Notes under the pieces: model-generated | The model's database searches: none | What the model was told of the DNA's origin: nothing | The model's input: the letters and a program-made list of their open reading frames with translations, nothing else | In this document: piece by piece, positions 405 through 38,645 of the stretch | Layout: every line of letters begins with the position of its first letter | How positions within the stretch are numbered: the first letter of the stretch is position 1 | Made by a program: the position numbers and the translations under genes | Origin: Escherichia phage BB1 | Strand: one strand, 5' to 3' | Length of the DNA stretch: 64,000 nucleotides | Sequence record: NC_106597.1

Positions 405-480
405 TGGTACACCCACTAGGACTTGAACCTAGAACCCTCCGCTTAAGAGGCGGTAGCTCTAACCATTGAGCTATGGATGT
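405..480 (-). tRNA. tRNA-Lys (anticodon CUU)
   Basis: Manual cloverleaf in minus sense: acceptor ACATCCA/TGGGTGT, D-stem GCTC/GAGC, anticodon loop CTCTTAA, T-arm CTAGG-TTCAAGT-CCTAG, encoded CCA. Confidence 0.7.
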
Positions 481-930: not shown

Positions 931-1013
931 TGGCGGGCCGTGTAGGATTCGAACCTACGTTGTCTTTCGACATGGATTAACAGTCCACCGCCAAACCGCT
1001 TGGCTAACGACCC
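931..1013 (-). tRNA. tRNA-Asn (anticodon GUU) with unusually long 13-nt variable arm
   Basis: Manual fold: acceptor GGGTCGT/ACGGCCC, D-arm GCCA-AGCGGTT-TGGC, anticodon arm GTGGA-CTGTTAA-TCCAT, variable GTCGAAAGACAAC (GAAA tetraloop hairpin), T-arm GTAGG-TTCGAAT-CCTAC, CCA encoded. Confidence 0.65.
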
Positions 1014-1600: not shown

Positions 1601-1675
1601 TGGTGCACCCCGTTGGTAACGATCCAACCTCTCAAGCTCTTCAGGCAAGCGCTAATCCATCTCAGCTAAAGGTGC
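1601..1675 (-). tRNA. tRNA, tentative anticodon GAA (Phe); non-canonical (U-U mismatches in anticodon stem, T-loop ATCGTTA)
   Basis: Manual fold: acceptor GCACCTT/GGGGTGC, T-stem GGTTG/CCAAC, anticodon loop CTGAAGA; anticodon stem has only 3 of 5 pairs. Confidence 0.45.
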
Positions 1676-1766: not shown

Positions 1767-1843
1767 TGGCGTCCTGTGCGGGGATCGAACCCACAAATCC
1801 TACCTTGAAAGGGTAGTGACTTTACCAGTTTGTCTAACAGGAC
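1767..1843 (-). tRNA. tRNA-Glu (anticodon UUC)
   Basis: Manual fold: perfect acceptor (gtcctgt/acaggac), anticodon stem ctacc/ggtag with loop rc of ttgaaag, T-loop TTCGATC, encoded CCA. Confidence 0.75.
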
Positions 1844-2325
1844 TTAAATTGCTTATTGGATAGATTGTTAAACTCGGAAAGTATTTCGTTTACACCTCTG
1901 TCTAACACTACCCATTCATTAAGCCGTTCAGGAAAGCTATTATGAAGCATTTTCTCCGCTTCTCTAGCATTAAACCAAAATGACCAATGTATTAACTTAT
2001 AATCACGTAAAGGAGAATAGGTTTGGTAATTTCCTAATCTTGTTTTAGGATCAGAAGACATACCAATTTTTACATAGTTATCCCAAGCTGGGTTAGTTAT
2101 TGCGTAAATAAAACCACAGCTGGATTTTTCTCCAATACTTTTGTTATACTTGATAAAAGATAGTGCAGATAACTTCAAGCTATATCGACGATTACTATCG
2201 CGACCAAAGTTAGCTGTACCGAATGTGAGGCTTTCTAACATTAGATCTTTGTTTATATCAGCTGGTGAACCCAACTGTATAATACCCCTATTTGCAGCTT
2301 CTTGAATTATCCGATCAATATACAT
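1834..2325 (-). CDS. T5orf172-type GIY-YIG-like domain protein (putative homing-type endonuclease)
   Basis: 163 aa; motif CGFIYAITNPAWDNYVKIGMSSDPKTRL resembles the GIY-YIG/T5orf172 core; AAAGGTAAAGG RBS; stop codon overlaps the 5' end of tRNA-Glu. Confidence 0.55.
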   Translation of the reverse strand: MYIDRIIQEAANRGIIQLGSPADINKDLMLESLTFGTANFGRDSNRRYSLKLSALSFIKYNKSIGEKSSCGFIYAITNPAWDNYVKIGMSSDPKTRLGNYQTYSPLRDYKLIHWSFWFNAREAEKMLHNSFPERLNEWVVLDRGVNEILSEFNNLSNKQFKSC

Positions 2326-2430: not shown

Positions 2431-2558
2431 ATATTTAAAAGTATTCAAATACTAGTTTAAACACTTTTAAATATGTTTCCAAATTAGATAACTATTATAC
2501 CAAGTTTTAAGGCACTGAGCAAGTCAAATTTTAAAGAACTTGCTCAGTGCTGTATTAG

Positions 2559-2834
2559 TTAGTCGAACTTAGGAGTGACAGTTAAGGAGAATGGAAGTTC
2601 GAAGACTTCTTCGCCCTCATCACTAACAGTAATTACACGACCTTTAAGTTCAGACATTGAAATATCAATATCAGCTTTTGCATCTGGAGCCATGCCAGCT
2701 TCAACACATTTAGCTTTAATTTCCGGCAGAAGTTCTACATCGTAGAAATAAAGCCATTCAATCTCACCTTCCCAGCCTTCCCAGGATTTACAGATTGCAC
2801 TTTCAATACCAGTTGCTATAACACGATTTTGCAT
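2559..2834 (-). CDS. hypothetical protein (91 aa)
   Basis: ORF with GAAGGAG RBS. Confidence 0.5.
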   Translation of the reverse strand: MQNRVIATGIESAICKSWEGWEGEIEWLYFYDVELLPEIKAKCVEAGMAPDAKADIDISMSELKGRVITVSDEGEEVFELPFSLTVTPKFD

Positions 2835-2924
2835 TCGTTAACTCCTTCATCAATTTATATAACTATTATACCAGAAATTTAAAGCAAAAGGCAAGTACAT
2901 TTTTAAAAATTCTGTTTGGAGGAG

Positions 2925-3131
2925 CTAAACTCCAGATTCTTCAGCTAAGTCTAGGCTAATAAGAGATATAGCCATAATTGCTGCTCCGTGTTCTCTTTCT
3001 CCTGTCTCTTTAGCTAGGGTTATAATATCAAGAAATTGCTTATGAAAGTCTGCAACCTCTTGAGTCATACCTGCCTCAGCAATCATGCCTTTAAGCATGA
3101 AACGTTGTGCGGTAATTTCGGGATTAGCCAT
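2925..3131 (-). CDS. hypothetical protein (68 aa)
   Basis: ORF with GGAG RBS. Confidence 0.45.
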   Translation of the reverse strand: MANPEITAQRFMLKGMIAEAGMTQEVADFHKQFLDIITLAKETGEREHGAAIMAISLISLDLAEESGV

Positions 3132-3291
3132 GTTGTTTCTCCAGTTTCATGTTTAATAGTCTACAAATAAAATCAATGTCTTCATCTGTGCCTAGATCTC
3201 TATCTTCAAGAGTTGCCTTGAAGTTTTTCGTCAATTCCATGAGGATAACTTCTCTAGAACGACGTGTTGGCGGAGGTGGATGTCTATACAT
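3124..3291 (-). CDS. hypothetical small protein (about 55 aa, proline-rich N-terminus), below ORF-track size cutoff
   Basis: Hand-translated MYRHPPPPTRRSREVIL...; AAGGAAATAAG RBS; stop overlaps start of downstream gene. Confidence 0.4.
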   Translation of the reverse strand: MYRHPPPPTRRSREVILMELTKNFKATLEDRDLGTDEDIDFICRLLNMKLEKQHG

Positions 3292-3305
3292 CTTATTTCC
3301 TTAAG

Positions 3306-3382
3306 TTGGTAGGGGTGGTGGGATTCGAACCCACAAAACCTGAATTTTAAGTCCAGTACCTATGCCAATTCGATTACACCCC
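3306..3382 (-). tRNA. tRNA with anticodon UAA (Leu-type) but short class-I variable loop
   Basis: Manual fold: acceptor GGGGGTG/CACCCCT, anticodon arm CTGGA-CTTAAAA-TTCAG, variable GTTTT, T-arm GTGGG-TTCGAAT-CCCAC, A73, CCA encoded; D-arm does not pair canonically. Confidence 0.55.
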
Positions 3383-3484
3383 CATGTAATCAGTTTATTA
3401 GTTGGTACATATTATAGCCTAGTGAAAATCCTACTACTAGTCCCACAAACCAACCAATATAATAATCTTTTAGTTTCACAGGTA

Positions 3485-3670
3485 TTATCCTCGTTCAATA
3501 TCTAGGGAAATACCGCAGTTAGGATTAATACCTGTACCGTTGCAATTTGAACAAATCCAGATATTGCAAAAAGTATCTCCTGCTTCTGCATCAGAACTTT
3601 CACCAATTCCCCTACATTCAGGGCAGGCACATTCTTCTAGCTCTTGCTTGAGTTCTTGAAACTTAGACAT
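3485..3670 (-). CDS. small Cys-rich zinc-ribbon-like protein (61 aa)
   Basis: CxxC...C...CxxC pattern (CACPECRG...CNIWICSNCNG); AAGGAG RBS. Confidence 0.5.
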   Translation of the reverse strand: MSKFQELKQELEECACPECRGIGESSDAEAGDTFCNIWICSNCNGTGINPNCGISLDIERG

Positions 3671-3679
3671 ATAGTCTCC

Positions 3680-3868
3680 TTAGTCAATTACTTTTGAGGC
3701 TTCAAGGGAGTCGATATAGTATACGTTTTCTACCATAATCATATAATCTGCCACTTTATCCATAGCTTGGGCCTCAGAGGTAGCTCTGGCTAACCTATAT
3801 CCTTTTTTATATTCATCCGGGTATTCTCTATCTTGAATAAACACAACATAAACTATGTATAATTCCAC
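3680..3868 (-). CDS. hypothetical small protein; start uncertain (GTG at 3868 or ATG at 3763)
   Basis: Track ORF 3680-4015 overlaps tRNA 3888-3965, so truncated to the first plausible start after the tRNA with a GGGGA RBS. Confidence 0.3.
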   Translation of the reverse strand: MELYIVYVVFIQDREYPDEYKKGYRLARATSEAQAMDKVADYMIMVENVYYIDSLEASKVID

Positions 3869-3887
3869 TTGTAATCCCCTAATTAAG

Positions 3888-3965
3888 TTGGTGGCTCCCC
3901 GAGGATTCGAACCTACGTACCTTCCGGTTATGAGCCGGGTGCTCATACCATATGAGCTTGAGAAC
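3888..3965 (-). tRNA. tRNA-Met or tRNA-Ile (anticodon CAU)
   Basis: Manual fold: acceptor GGTTCTC/GGGAGCC (with G-U), D-arm GCTC/GAGC, anticodon arm CCGG-CTCATAA-CCGG; T-stem only 3 bp; CCA encoded. Confidence 0.55.
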
Positions 3966-3971
3966 CAAAAT

Positions 3972-4065
3972 CTGGAGGAAGATGCCAGACTCGAACTGGC
4001 ACACCATGTTTCCACAGTTACTGGCTGTTTAGCAAACAGCTCCCTTACCTTTAGGGTTAATCTTC
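3972..4065 (-). tRNA. tRNA-Ser (anticodon GCU)
   Basis: Manual fold: perfect acceptor GGAAGAT/ATCTTCC, 3-bp D-stem, anticodon arm GCTGT-TTGCTAA-ACAGC, long variable arm, T-arm GCCAG-TTCGAGT-CTGGC, CCA encoded. Confidence 0.65.
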
Positions 4066-4087
4066 CGAATTTATAAGATATATTATA

Positions 4088-4609
4088 TTAGAAATTTAGC
4101 TTCATAGCAAGAAAATTTTTCAAGTTTTCGGTAGACATCTCATCTACATCTACAGGAGAAACAAAGCCGTTTAATTTTCTAGCAAATTTTTCACCATCGG
4201 GATCATTGTCTCCAACAGCTACCAATTTAAAAGGTAGTAATTTCAGTTGCTTTAATAACGCTTTTCCTGGAGAAGAACCCAACATTGCTAGGGCTGGATA
4301 ACCAGCGTTATGTAACGCAACTGCCTTAAATACAGATTCAGCAATCAATACTACTTTTTCATCTCCATTGAGAGTTTCTAGTCCCCATACACACTGGGTA
4401 GTAGAATAAGTAAAGTATTTAGCTTCAAAGGGGCACTTACCATGACCTTTTGGAGCAGAAGGATTATAAGTTTGATAGCCCCTCAACATCCCAGAGAAGT
4501 CATACAACGGGACTGTTAGCCATCCTTCTGGACTTAACCAGCAATGATATTTATCTGTATCAAATCCCCTAGATAAGAGGTGCTGTGTTAGCTCATCAAC
4601 ATTCATATT
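4088..4609 (-). CDS. Toprim-domain-like protein (about 173 aa)
   Basis: Conserved-looking E (IAESVF) and DxD (VGDNDPDGEKF) resembling the Toprim fold; start moved to MNVDELTQ with GAGAGGAACC RBS downstream of promoter 4637-4665. Confidence 0.45.
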   Translation of the reverse strand, partial: NMNVDELTQHLLSRGFDTDKYHCWLSPEGWLTVPLYDFSGMLRGYQTYNPSAPKGHGKCPFEAKYFTYSTTQCVWGLETLNGDEKVVLIAESVFKAVALHNAGYPALAMLGSSPGKALLKQLKLLPFKLVAVGDNDPDGEKFARKLNGFVSPVDVDEMSTENLKNFLAMKLNF

Positions 4610-4636
4610 TGGTTCCTCTCTCAAATTTATAGATAT

Positions 4637-4665
4637 ATTATACAGAGAATTTAGCATTCAAGCAA
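4637..4665 (-). promoter_or_regulatory. early promoter (minus sense TTGCTT-17-TATAAT)
   Basis: attata 4637-4642, 17-bp spacer, aagcaa 4660-4665. Confidence 0.6.
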
Positions 4666-4781
4666 TCAAATTTTTTAACTTTTTAGAGGAAAATCATAGG
4701 GCACTTAAGGGTAGCAGATAAGTGGTGAGGACCAAAATTTGTGACCCCACTAAAAATCCGGGGGCAATTTTTAAAGACCCC

Positions 4782-8172: not shown

Positions 8173-8250
8173 TCTTACCGACCGTAGGATTCGAACCTAC
8201 ATCTTCCACCAGTTACGGCTTGATAATACCAATTATACTAGGACGGCAGT
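8173..8250 (-). tRNA. tRNA-like element (possible pseudo-tRNA)
   Basis: Canonical T-arm GTAGG-TTCGAAT-CCTAC but no CCA, mismatched acceptor and no clean anticodon arm. Confidence 0.3.
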
Positions 8251-35443: not shown

Positions 35444-36203
35444 ACTGAACTGGAACGTAGAAGGTGTAACCGAGTCTCTGAAAGCAAAAGCCACTGCTCT
35501 GGGTGTTTCTGTAATCTCTCAAGAACAAGTAGCTGCTATCGCTACTGAACTGGCTGCTGAAACTGGCAAAGATGTTACTGCTCGCTCTGTTGGCTCTAAA
35601 CTGCGTAAAGAAGGTTTTGAAGTACAGAAAGCTAACGAAGTACAGAAATCCCCGTGGACTCCTGAGCAGGAAGCTGAACTGGTTGATTTCCTGAACGCTC
35701 ATGCTGGTCAGTATACCTATGCTGAAATCGCTGCTGCTGTAGCTGGTGGTCAGTTCGGTGCTAAACAGGTACAGGGTAAGATCCTGAGTCTGGAAATGAC
35801 TGCTTCTGTTAAACCAACTGAAAAAGCTGCTGCTGTTCGTTCCTTTACTCCGGATGAAGAAACTGATTTTGTTAATCAGGTTGTTGCTGGTGCTACTATT
35901 GAAGCTATCGCTGCTCACTTCGGTCGTAATATCAAGCAGATCCGTGGTAAAGCTCTGAGCCTGCTTCGTGAAGGTCGTATCGCTGCTATGCCGGTACAGG
36001 AAACCTCAAGTGCTAAAACTCGTGAAGATCTGTTAGAAGGTCTGGATCTGGCTAACATGACTGTTGCTGAGATCGCTGAGAAAACTGGTAAATCTGAGCG
36101 CGGTGTTAAATCTATGCTGTCTCGTCGTGGTCTGGTTGCTAAGGACTATGATGGTGCCGCTAAGCGTGCTAAACTGGATGCAAAAGCTGCGGCTGCTGAA
36201 TAA
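35436..36203 (+). CDS. Ala-rich protein with four internal HTH-like repeats; putative abundant DNA-binding protein
   Basis: Four repeats of about 30 aa (e.g. YTYAEIAAAVAGGQFGAKQVQGKILSLE / ATIEAIAAHFGRNIKQIRGKALSLL); by eye codon choice resembles highly expressed genes. Confidence 0.55.
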   Translation: MSKLNWNVEGVTESLKAKATALGVSVISQEQVAAIATELAAETGKDVTARSVGSKLRKEGFEVQKANEVQKSPWTPEQEAELVDFLNAHAGQYTYAEIAAAVAGGQFGAKQVQGKILSLEMTASVKPTEKAAAVRSFTPDEETDFVNQVVAGATIEAIAAHFGRNIKQIRGKALSLLREGRIAAMPVQETSSAKTREDLLEGLDLANMTVAEIAEKTGKSERGVKSMLSRRGLVAKDYDGAAKRAKLDAKAAAAE

Positions 36204-36220
36204 TCTGGTAAATTAAACCT

Positions 36221-36253
36221 AAGGGGAGGGGGCTATGCTCCTTCCCCTTTTTG
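36221..36253 (+). terminator. rho-independent terminator
   Basis: aaggggaggggg...ccttcccctt hairpin followed by TTTTG; overlaps the first track-ORF start at 36235. Confidence 0.6.
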
Positions 36254-36285
36254 CATTTAGAAGGCACGAAAGCGTGCAAAGGAGA

Positions 36286-37758
36286 ATGACCTTGTTTAAC
36301 GTGCAAGCTGTAGTGTTGAAGATGCTTCTAGCTTCTGAACAGAAGCAAATAGCATTGGAAACATTCTCAAAACTGCATAAAGATCATTTTAATGACGCTT
36401 TCTCCTCAATTTACCAAGCCGTCCAGAATTATTATAAAAAATATAACACAATGCCGTCCATTGATGCACTGATGCTTGAGGCTAATAGGAACGCCCGCCT
36501 TTCTCAAGCTCTAGTCGTCTTAGCTAACACTCAAATTCCAGAAGTGAGCATGGAACAGGCACTTGAAGTCCTAGAGGCCGAATATACACAGGATTTATTC
36601 CTGAAGCTTCTAGAAACAGACGTGCTTCAAGATTTAACAATGCTGGATCAGGGAGAAATTCTCAACCGAGTTGCCTCCCTTCACTTAAAATTAGAAGAGA
36701 AAGTAACGAATACTGGAAAAGTATTCAACGCAGATAACATGCGTATTTTCCAGAGAGAAGAAGATACCAAACTGAACCTAATCGCTCTTGGTATTTGTAA
36801 TGAGTTCGACGCTCAAATTGGTTTAGCTCGCACAGAAACGTTACTGCTTGGTGGTTGGCGTGGTACTGGTAAATCCATTATCTGTTCAAACATACAGGTT
36901 CAGCAATATTTGAATGGAGATATTGCTCCATACTTCTCAATTGAGATGAAAGAACATGAAGTATTTAGACGTAATCTAGCCATGTTAGCTGGTGTATCAG
37001 CATTAGCAATGCGTAATAATACTCTAGAAGGTGCAGCTCTGTTGAGATTGGCCAGAACTAGAGCTAGAATGTTTAATGGGGGTGAAGAGCTTTTTGATAA
37101 CTTCGTTAAACAGTACACAATGGCTAAGATGAGTGATTTCTACGATATGGAGAGTAAGCTAATAGAGGGATATGAACTACATACTCCCATGATTATTGTT
37201 TATGATCCTGAACTGTCCATTACAACAGTTGACGTAGAATTAAATAAATTAGTTGCTAGATACGGAGATAAAGTTACAGTAGCTTTACTGGACTATATTA
37301 ACCAAACCCGACTTCCAGACTCTAAAACCATTGATATGTATGACTGGAAAGAACAGATGGTTGTTAGCTCGTCTTTCAAATCTATCTGCCAGAAACATAA
37401 CGTGGCTGGCGTAGCTCCTTACCAGATCGATCAAGATGGTAGAACACGTATGTCAAAGGGGATTCTTGATTCTGCAGACATGGCTGCTAATCTTAATGCT
37501 GCAAAAGCTGATAATGGTCAAGGTGCTATTATGTTTGACTTCGTTAAGACTCGTTCTTCTGATAGCGTGAAGTTTATGCCTAAAATGAACTGGGAAACCC
37601 TGCGGATGGATAACACTACCAACCTAGCAATGGAAGATATATCTCAAATGGAAGCTGAGTTCGTTATCCCTATTGAGAAGGATAAGCCGGCTCAACCTAA
37701 ACGTGCTAAGAAAGACAAAGCTGAAAATTCAACAGGTGAACAGGCCAGCGATATATGA
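36286..37758 (+). CDS. replicative helicase-like P-loop ATPase (DnaB/RecA-fold), tentative
   Basis: Walker A GGWRGTGKS, Walker B-like region; start moved to MTLFNV (AAAGGAG RBS) downstream of terminator. Confidence 0.6.
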   Translation: MTLFNVQAVVLKMLLASEQKQIALETFSKLHKDHFNDAFSSIYQAVQNYYKKYNTMPSIDALMLEANRNARLSQALVVLANTQIPEVSMEQALEVLEAEYTQDLFLKLLETDVLQDLTMLDQGEILNRVASLHLKLEEKVTNTGKVFNADNMRIFQREEDTKLNLIALGICNEFDAQIGLARTETLLLGGWRGTGKSIICSNIQVQQYLNGDIAPYFSIEMKEHEVFRRNLAMLAGVSALAMRNNTLEGAALLRLARTRARMFNGGEELFDNFVKQYTMAKMSDFYDMESKLIEGYELHTPMIIVYDPELSITTVDVELNKLVARYGDKVTVALLDYINQTRLPDSKTIDMYDWKEQMVVSSSFKSICQKHNVAGVAPYQIDQDGRTRMSKGILDSADMAANLNAAKADNGQGAIMFDFVKTRSSDSVKFMPKMNWETLRMDNTTNLAMEDISQMEAEFVIPIEKDKPAQPKRAKKDKAENSTGEQASDI

Positions 37759-38645
37759 GTAGAATAACAGAACTACTTGATCTGAAAGGCATTGAATATA
37801 AAGACACAGGTGGGGACATCCTCATCTGTTGTCTCAATCCAGATCATGACGATAAACACCCAAGTTTGCGTATTGATCCTGAAACAGGTATTATGCACTG
37901 CTTGAGTTGTGGCTTCGGTAAAGGTATACCGAGCATTTACCATTATTTTAATGAGACTCAGTACCGACAGTCCCCAAGACTATCACAGGTACGTAAAAAG
38001 ATTTCAGAGATTAGGAATGGATCTACGAATCTTGCAATTCCTGAATCTGCTTACCTTTTCGAAGGTGATTTCCGAGGTATAAGTTCTAAGACCTTGAAGA
38101 AATATTTTGCTTTCCAACACCAAGCAGACTGGGAAGGCAGAATTGTATTCCCAATCACAGATGCTGTTGGACGCAATATCCTATTTTTGGGTCGTTCTAT
38201 AAACAGTTCTGCCCCTCCTAAATACCTAGTAAAACCAAAACAAGTTTCACCGCCAATTTTTCCTGTACGATATAATACTCCAGTTCTTATTCTAGTTGAA
38301 GGTATCTTTGATATGCTGAATCTAGAGGATAATGGTATAGACTATGCTTCTTGTTGCTTTGGTACACATCAGTTTACTTCAGACAACATTGCAGATAAGT
38401 TCAGTCCGTATATTATTGCTGGTGTTAAAGTTGTTGTTATCTTACTAGATAATGATGCTTCTGGTAATAAAGCTGCACAAGCACTGGCTAAGCTAATTCG
38501 TACAAAAACGCGTTTAACACCTGTAGTTGCTAACTTTCTTCTGCCTGAAGGTAAAGACCCAGGTGACTTAAATAAAGAAGAAATTGATATGTTAGCAAAA
38601 CGTATTGAAATTTTAGTTGCTGAATCGCTTAAAGATTTGGTATAA
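37755..38645 (+). CDS. DNA primase (DnaG-type: zinc-binding + Toprim)
   Basis: Zinc ribbon CCLNPDHDDKHPSLRIDPETGIMHCLSCG; Toprim motifs LVEGIFDMLNL and ILLDNDASG. Confidence 0.8.
   Translation: MSRITELLDLKGIEYKDTGGDILICCLNPDHDDKHPSLRIDPETGIMHCLSCGFGKGIPSIYHYFNETQYRQSPRLSQVRKKISEIRNGSTNLAIPESAYLFEGDFRGISSKTLKKYFAFQHQADWEGRIVFPITDAVGRNILFLGRSINSSAPPKYLVKPKQVSPPIFPVRYNTPVLILVEGIFDMLNLEDNGIDYASCCFGTHQFTSDNIADKFSPYIIAGVKVVVILLDNDASGNKAAQALAKLIRTKTRLTPVVANFLLPEGKDPGDLNKEEIDMLAKRIEILVAESLKDLV

Follow-up and report, generated by a model that had tools for sequence, protein, structure and literature searches.

Can a tRNA that carries a leucine anticodon and lacks the long variable arm of leucine tRNAs still be a leucine tRNA? 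The question is raised by a 77-nucleotide (nt) gene in Escherichia phage BB1 (NC_106597.1), in a stretch of 64,000 nt that was analysed as a whole and is called the window below. In the textbook view, every bacterial leucine tRNA has a long extra arm. An earlier note, made from the letters of the window, had found a short-armed tRNA with anticodon UAA here and offered three explanations: an unusual leucine isoacceptor, a tRNA with a different identity or a faulty fold. A review of tRNA identity from 2023 describes this arm as universal except in animal mitochondria (PMC9976931). It is the first explanation that we adopt. The gene very probably encodes a functional type I (short variable loop) tRNALeu(UAA) of a T5-like phage, charged by the host's leucyl-tRNA synthetase (LeuRS) and supplementing the decoding of UUA and UUG codons.

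ARAGORN, run on the window, calls ten tRNA genes on the minus strand within the first 8 kb, including a tRNA-Leu(taa) of 77 nt at 3307-3383(-) with its anticodon at position 35. The Rfam tRNA model (RF00005) covers 3310-3383(-) end to end with 57.4 bits (gathering score 29; E 1.3e-10) and flags no non-canonical pair, so that the gene consists of 74 nt and an encoded CCA. Segment by segment, the RNA reads GGGGGUG UA AUCG AAUUGGCAU AGGU A CUGGA CUUAAAA UUCAG GUUUU GUGGG UUCGAAU CCCAC CACCCCU A CCA. It contains U8, A14, G18G19, U33 and a UUCGAAU T loop. The earlier note had the length right; its interval, 3306-3382, lies one base off, and it did not state the strand, which is the minus strand. 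Its 5-nt variable loop (GUUUU), A73 (at 3310) and anticodon loop CTTAAAA are all present. The note would have given up the tRNA if software had returned another anticodon or no tRNA at all; ARAGORN finds the tRNA and reads UAA. The suspicion of a faulty fold can also be dropped, the cloverleaf being borne out by both ARAGORN and Rfam. Thermodynamic folding of the single sequence gives a minimum-energy structure that is not a cloverleaf (z = -1.2). We regard this as uninformative for a tRNA and do not weigh it against the call; the cloverleaf has the support of the covariance model and of the comparative data described below.

To place the tRNA among leucine tRNAs, it was aligned segment by segment with those of E. 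coli (leuZ), phage T4 and phage 201phi2-1, all with anticodon UAA. All segment lengths are equal except that of the variable region, which is 15 nt in the three class II tRNAs and 5 nt in the window tRNA; in class II tRNALeu it is 13-15 nt. A26, A73 and an encoded CCA are common to all. So is the 4+9+4 nt layout of the D arm, with a three-pair stem, positions 13 and 22 unpaired (G13·A22 in the window tRNA, A13·A22 in T4) and the nine-base loop AAUUGGCAU matching its counterparts in length, and so are A14, A15, G18G19 and A20a. The poor pairing of the D arm, noted earlier as a possible defect, is real (three pairs and a G13·A22 mismatch) and is that of a normal tRNALeu. The anticodon loop CUUAAAA is the same in the T4 and 201phi2-1 tRNAs, the T stem is that of T4 tRNALeu, and leuZ has the same G1·U72 wobble. 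With the variable region left aside, the tRNA is 60% identical to leuZ, 72% to the T4 tRNA and 78% to that of 201phi2-1. The window tRNA thus looks like a phage class II tRNALeu(UAA) minus its variable stem-loop. Its closest relatives are viral type I tRNALeu (77-80% identity) and phage class II tRNALeu(UAA).

The determinants recognised by E. coli LeuRS are A73, the A15-U48 Levitt pair, G18G19, A20a and the tertiary pairs linking the D loop with the T loop (PMC9976931), to which A14 has been added (PMC6614811). The enzyme requires neither the anticodon nor the long variable arm, and arm-truncated tRNALeu stays active (PMC9976931). Every listed determinant, A14 included, is present in the window tRNA. 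The anticodon UAA (3349-3347) is one of those that read leucine codons (NAG or YAA), and the variable loop, at 5 nt, is well short of the long arm of more than 10 nt that defines the class II shape. A leucine anticodon together with a variable loop of 4-5 nt is what we call a type I tRNALeu. Since the long arm is a structural hallmark and not a determinant for E. coli LeuRS, the gene is classed as a tRNALeu for its identity and as a type I tRNA for its shape.

It is very unlikely that the tRNA carries another amino acid and recodes UUA and UUG, for example after charging by the phenylalanine enzyme (PheRS), or acts as a suppressor. The type I shape is typical of most non-leucine tRNAs, A35, A36 and A73 are common to tRNAPhe (anticodon GAA), and by BLAST the 3' two-thirds of the gene are partly similar to a tRNA-Gln of a Pseudomonas phage. 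However, no G3·U70 pair is present, which excludes the alanine enzyme AlaRS; TyrRS needs U35, and SerRS needs G73 and a long arm. E. coli PheRS needs G34, U20 and U59 (PMC9976931), whereas the window tRNA has U34, C20 and A59, so that only A35 and A36 are shared of the set G34, A35, A36, U20 and U59. Recoding the leucine codon that the phage uses most would, moreover, damage every protein. On determinants, Phe, Tyr, Ser, Ala and Gln identities were ruled out, and the different identity considered in the earlier note goes with them. The suppressor was rejected on pairing: the anticodon 5'-UAA-3' pairs with UUA and UUG and not with a stop codon, suppressor anticodons being CUA, UUA and UCA.

The comparative data come from BLAST and from pattern scans of IMG/VR. 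BLAST finds 77-nt leucine tRNAs with anticodon UAG or UAA in the Demerecviridae phages SPC35, Ob_P (a phage of Obesumbacterium), JSF12 and PG07 (both Vibrio phages), and also matches Aeromonas phage LAh_8. A scan of IMG/VR whose pattern, at type I spacing, constrained the D loop, U33 to A37 and the T loop and nothing else hit at least 120 contigs, and its 92 distinct hits were analysed unfiltered. Among these matches listed, 91.4% of stem cells pair, compared with 40-49% after a shift of the 3' partners by one or two columns, and double-sided (compensatory) changes occur in 20 of the 21 cloverleaf pairs; the 21st, 13-22, is paired in only one of the 92. A73 (91/92) and U48 (92/92) are conserved among them although neither was fixed by the search pattern, and the consensus of the variable loop is R-U-U-Y-U. 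The viral set with anticodon UAG or UAA comprises at least 81 distinct cloverleaves, with CCA encoded in 72 of the 81 listed.

When the anticodon positions were changed in the pattern, the short body remained a leucine body. A scan of all IMG/VR for anticodons without A35 gave 40 hits, only eight of them real tRNAs (Glu, His, Gln, Asn and Lys). A scan with A35 and any base but U at position 34 gave at least 87 cloverleaves. Of those listed, 83 are leucine tRNAs (CAA 54, GAG 11, CAG 10 and AAG 8), all with A73 and U48, and the other four are CAU tRNAs with a different body; no GAA (Phe), Val or Ile anticodon was found among the matches listed. The short body, which carries UAG, CAA, CAG, GAG and AAG and never GAA among these matches, gives no encouragement to a phenylalanine identity. 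All six leucine anticodons, and essentially nothing else, are represented on it, in at least 160 distinct viral tRNAs, a range that fits a synthetase that does not read the anticodon.

With the variable region and anticodon masked, the nearest neighbour of a type I leucine tRNA was itself type I in 237 of 249 cases (85 with a different anticodon), in a sample biased by the mode of collection. This suggests a coherent lineage that would have diversified by anticodon switching. Mobile type I tRNALeu can be described by a D loop AAUNGGYAUA, G13·A22, a variable loop R-U-U-Y-U with U48 as its last base, A73, a leucine anticodon and, usually, an encoded CCA; the window tRNA fits every one of these. 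The lineage includes at least 81 and at least 83 distinct viral members from the two scans and at least 76 in bacterial genome contigs.

Loss of the arm is a matter of leucine tRNAs. In 233 viral loci from the two IMG/VR scans, ARAGORN called 3,229 tRNAs, of which the serine tRNAs are 219 long and 1 short, the tyrosine tRNAs 78 long and 6 short, and the leucine tRNAs 125 long and 368 short. Short and long leucine tRNAs occur together in 90 of 231 viral loci. The only near-unbiased sample, which is small, consists of 40 viral loci fetched for an unrelated reason: leucine tRNAs are 6 short and 5 long, while all eight serine and all four tyrosine tRNAs are long. Among the matches listed in 120 bacterial genome loci, there are 181 short and 15 long leucine tRNAs, and all 85 serine tRNAs are long. 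This confinement to leucine is the pattern expected if the arm is dispensable only where the synthetase does not need it. Isoleucine tRNAs of 80 nt or more were also recorded (42 of 156 ARAGORN calls in the listed viral loci); a long arm, an intron or a mis-call may lie behind the extra length.

In bacteria, short leucine tRNAs (74-78 nt) lie inside dense arrays of 10-23 genes per 1-3 kb. Such arrays occur on chromosomal contigs of Flavobacteriaceae (L155, L176, L150, L195, L208 and L186), where the copies have no encoded CCA and are conserved across genera, on chromosomes of Rariloculaceae/Gammaproteobacteria (L132 and L179) and in Ca. Uabimicrobium (L185), where five type I leucine tRNAs (UAG, CAA, two UAA and AAG) are interleaved with class II tyrosine tRNAs. 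A 78-nt subfamily, in which three nucleotides (UGA) and not two separate the acceptor stem from the D stem and in which CCA is encoded, is found in Burkholderiales, Gammaproteobacteria and some viral contigs (for example, L132 7369-7446 and L179 3620-3697). The two arrays given as examples also contain 93-nt tRNA-Ile(UAU) calls (L132 7191-7283; L179 3785-3877). Candidatus Nardonella dryophthoridicola, an insect endosymbiont with a 200-kb genome, has a type I-shaped tRNA-Leu(UAG) between tRNA-Gln and tRNA-Met (L165 5664-5739), which could be a cellular, non-mobile armless tRNALeu.

Is the gene in the window functional? Over 2 kb, its surroundings share 93-97% identity with many T5-like phages that infect Escherichia and Salmonella (Tequintavirus, Demerecviridae), and within this group the flanking 2 kb are mostly only 80-95% identical. 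The 77-nt gene itself is at least 99% identical in 291 of 339 full-length BLAST matches, in records that usually annotate it as 'tRNA-Leu'. Near-invariance of 77 nt amid diverged flanks is a signature of purifying selection, under which, judged from this pattern, the gene stands. A decaying remnant, that is, a tRNALeu whose variable arm was deleted and which is now a pseudogene, is correspondingly a most improbable reading. Such a remnant could account for the absence of the gene from T5, for a broken chimera of two leucine genes in a relative, Escherichia phage phiAPCEc03, and for the variant in WP85, with a C27·U43 mismatch. It does not fit the perfect cloverleaf and high Rfam score, the conservation in hundreds of genomes with diverged flanks, or the compensatory changes and conserved leucine determinants in a family with over 160 members; moreover, this type of genome has yielded a short tRNALeu that works in E. 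coli (see below). The chimera (KR422353.1, around 151-227) has the 5' third of the Leu(UAA) gene followed largely by the Leu(UAG) gene; its acceptor strands cannot pair and ARAGORN calls no tRNA there. It looks like the product of a deletion by recombination between two short leucine genes.

The experiment that bears most closely on charging concerns phage OSYSP (MF402939.1). Its whole genome contains exactly two leucine tRNA genes, both of 77 nt: the UAA gene is 100% identical to that of the window, and the other is also type I. A 'bacteriophage-derived (MF402939.1) tRNALeu(CGA)', chosen from a library of anticodon-swapped tRNALeu, reads TCG as leucine in recoded E. coli, and 'firewalled' strains are built on it (PMC13596443; PMC11758808). 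As both OSYSP leucine genes are short, a type I tRNALeu of this phage type is leucylated in E. coli whichever of the two was used. The unusual leucine isoacceptor proposed in the earlier note has thus gained the complete E. coli leucine identity set, a class II-like architecture, a body tied almost wholly to leucine anticodons and an OSYSP tRNALeu that inserts leucine.

T5 itself does not have the gene. According to the T5 annotation and blastn, the HNH endonuclease gene hegA occupies its place: window positions 2471-3313 are colinear with T5 35529-36371 and 3879-4695 with T5 37076-37886, and between these conserved flanks the cassette that carries the tRNA gene in the window (Table 1) shares one site with T5 36372-37075, which contains hegA. 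The sole tRNALeu of T5 is an 85-nt class II UAG species. This is probably why the classical work on T5 tRNAs never met a short tRNALeu(UAA). Beside tRNA-Ala, T5 has this class II tRNALeu(UAG), and SPC35 and OSYSP have a type I one. In 5,426 complete E. coli genomes, no copy of the window gene was found, either on its own or in a prophage, the only matches being to the T arm, over 23 nt, on plasmids; the gene was therefore not captured from the host recently.

Table 1. Position of the leucine tRNA gene, its parts and associated features in the window
Feature	Position	Strand	Source
tRNA-Leu(UAA) gene, type I (short variable loop)	3307..3383	-	ARAGORN, Rfam, identical copies in phage records
5' strand of acceptor stem, GGGGGUG; wobble pair G1·U72, present also in E. 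coli leuZ	3377..3383	-	
D arm AUCG-AAUUGGCAU-AGGU: three pairs and G13·A22; A14, A15, G18G19, A20a; tRNALeu-type layout	3358..3374	-	
Anticodon arm CUGGA-CUUAAAA-UUCAG, with A36-A37-A38 motif	3340..3356	-	
Anticodon UAA (U34 A35 A36), reads UUA and UUG	3347..3349	-	ARAGORN
Variable loop GUUUU, 5 nt; final U is U48, partner of A15	3335..3339	-	
T arm GUGGG-UUCGAAU-CCCAC	3318..3334	-	Rfam match, segment alignment
3' strand of acceptor stem, CACCCCU, followed by discriminator A73 (3310)	3310..3317	-	Sequence
Genome-encoded CCA end	3307..3309	-	Sequence
Cassette of tRNA-Leu and 61-aa ORF (3485-3670), absent from T5	3314..3878	-	blastn against T5
Promoter-like site TTGCTA-17-TATAAT (10/12) at the T5 P15b position	4082..4110	-	Scan and T5 annotation

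The best-supported function is an ordinary one, the decoding of the favourite leucine codon of the phage. Across 39 open reading frames (ORFs) of the window, leucine is most often encoded by UUA (27% of leucine codons; 22.4 per 1000) and next by CUA (23.5%), and to these two codons the two short leucine tRNAs of this phage group are cognate. The gene lies within a minus-strand run of tRNAs and small ORFs and would be transcribed together with them as part of the early tRNA region. The promoter-like site in Table 1 stands upstream of tRNA-Ser(GCU), tRNA-Ile2(CAU), the 61-aa ORF and tRNA-Leu and is likely to be the source of a polycistronic transcript. The number of sites returned by the promoter scan of this region was not above chance, and only the positional match of this one to T5 P15b was used. 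Host RNases would trim the transcript to an end at which CCA is already present. Modification could follow, by the host enzymes MiaA at A37 (in its A36-A37-A38 context) and TrmL at U34; a tRNA without the arm should be accessible to both, since the anticodon loop is all that they require. For TrmL, the methylase of U34 or C34 in tRNALeu(UAA/CAA), the modified loop suffices, and deletion of the arm makes no difference (PMC4615657). From the identity rules, and with indirect support from the OSYSP experiment, the host LeuRS is expected to add leucine. The charged tRNA would then read UUA and UUG and, as UUA is most used by the phage and poorly served in E. coli, supplement or replace the host tRNALeu(UAA) during infection.

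Several points weigh against this reading. The host side of the comparison, that UUA and CUA are minor codons with minor tRNAs in E. coli, is general knowledge. T5 lives without a tRNALeu(UAA) gene, and the gene must then be dispensable in at least some hosts. The recoding tRNA may derive from either OSYSP leucine gene, the reported G5->A mutation fitting both. Finally, Fan et al. (2019; PMC6614811) saw no charging of the type I tRNALeu(CAA) from Streptomyces coelicolor by E. coli LeuRS and described the enzyme as type II-only, its leucine-specific domain favouring a large variable loop. Charging may thus be less efficient than for the host tRNALeu.

A decoding role leaves room for another reason why the arm was lost. 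It is possible, if doubtful, that the main selected role is anti-defence: an armless tRNALeu would escape immune enzymes that act on the variable arm or the class II shape and would keep UUA and UUG decoding alive when the host tRNALeu is inactivated. This would add to decoding and not exclude it. Two defence nucleases of E. coli, Retron-Eco7 PtuAB and Septu, cleave the variable loop of tRNATyr, a class II tRNA, and T5 tRNATyr resists by its distinct variable loop (PMC13096335). The nucleotidyltransferase toxins AbiEii and MenT3 appear to favour class II tRNAs with long arms (bioRxiv 2026.01.19.700257), and tRNALeu fragments are abundant with the HEPN nuclease of Retron-Kva2. The concentration of short tRNALeu in mobile tRNA sets (phage clusters and tRNA arrays) and the lack of a counterpart in the E. 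coli genomes searched point the same way. However, action on the variable arm of tRNALeu is not known for any defence system, short and long leucine tRNAs stand together in many viral clusters (the 90 of 231 loci above), and neutral loss, permitted because LeuRS ignores the arm, accounts for the pattern equally well. The same phages keep long arms on their serine and tyrosine tRNAs, which is not decisive because SerRS and TyrRS need those arms. In its general form, the idea makes arm loss an adaptive, widespread trait, by which mobile type I tRNALeu remain chargeable and become invisible to arm-directed nucleases and nucleotidyltransferases; we hold this, too, to be rather improbable. A dedicated armless lineage covering all six anticodons would be possible because LeuRS alone among the synthetases of class II tRNAs ignores the arm, and, if the idea is true, E. 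coli LeuRS would be a natural dual type I/type II enzyme, contrary to its published description. Bacterial Schlafen was considered as a type II-specific nuclease and not used, as the paper shows cleavage in the anticodon arm and no class II preference.

The neighbourhood contains other features of interest. The 61-aa ORF at 3485-3670(-), directly upstream of tRNA-Leu, has two CxxCxGxG motifs, a DnaJ zinc-finger match below threshold and a match to PHROG 6060, 'anti-termination protein Q-like'; in Pfam and PHROG searches, nothing in the small flanking ORFs was linked to tRNA function. A 163-aa ORF at 1834-2325(-) with a T5orf172/MUG113 domain (GIY-YIG-like) is inserted between the genes for tRNA-Glu, whose 5' end it overlaps, and for tRNA-Tyr; in T5, only 6 nt separate the two. 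The tRNA-Asn(GUU) at 931-1013(-) is the converse of the leucine case, a long-armed tRNA of a normally type I isotype: it is 83 nt long (83 nt also in OSYSP, 78 nt in T5), and its 13-nt variable region may form a GUC-GAAA-GAC hairpin. Rfam also matches three tRNAs that ARAGORN missed: a tRNA-Phe(GAA) with an odd T loop, AUCGUUA, at 1601-1675(-); a CAU tRNA, annotated tRNA-Ile2 in T5, at 3889-3966(-); and a tRNA-like element without CCA at 8173-8247(-), upstream of tRNA-Arg, in a region annotated RNAX in T5. At 405-480(-) there is a tRNA-Lys with anticodon CUU (64.8 bits), where the T5 reference lists only tRNA-Lys(UUU); it may bear on defences directed at Lys-tRNA, such as PARIS and PrrC.

The tRNA gene as such is no novelty: hundreds of records list it as tRNA-Leu, and synthetic biology makes use of a relative. 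The type I tRNALeu lineage in phages and tRNA arrays is large and barely described. Searches for 'type I tRNALeu' and variants of the term returned, in the searchable literature, only the Streptomyces paper as a bacterial exception, and short leucine tRNAs go unmentioned in reviews on non-canonical tRNAs and on tRNA arrays. A common group of coliphages thus gives E. coli and Salmonella a short-armed tRNALeu, and its gene is the tip of hundreds in phages and bacterial arrays. For annotation, this means that neither length nor class II shape can be used as a filter for leucine tRNAs in mobile elements; for synthetase biology, that E. coli LeuRS probably has natural type I substrates. In addition, defence nucleases are known to target the variable arm, and 'firewalled' E. 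coli strains with a swapped code already depend on a short viral tRNALeu from the same type of genome.

Besides class II tRNALeu(UAA), four known systems can be compared with the window tRNA. One is the engineered OSYSP 'viral tRNALeu(YGA)' of the Ser-to-Leu swapped code, which comes from a genome with type I leucine tRNAs and inserts leucine, but has its anticodon changed to CGA or UGA. The defence-resistant tRNATyr (against Retron-Eco7 and Septu) and tRNALys (against PARIS) of T5 belong to the same phage family and the same tRNA region. Like T5 tRNATyr, the window tRNA is a phage isoacceptor that differs from that of the host at the variable loop; for tRNATyr resistance is known, whereas for tRNALeu it is only a lead. 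The type I tRNALeu(CAA) of S. coelicolor (PMC6614811) also has a short loop and coexists with type II tRNALeu, one LeuRS charging both. It is, however, chromosomal, has anticodon CAA and does not use A73 as a determinant, whereas the window tRNA is phage-borne and has the full E. coli set; it is reported as uncharged by E. coli LeuRS, while a relative of the window tRNA works in E. coli. Animal mitochondrial tRNALeu(UUR) is likewise type I, with anticodon UAA and with A73 and A14 as identity elements (PMC9976931). It is structurally relaxed and served by a dedicated mitochondrial LeuRS, whereas the phage tRNA is a canonical, G-C-rich cloverleaf with a standard elbow.

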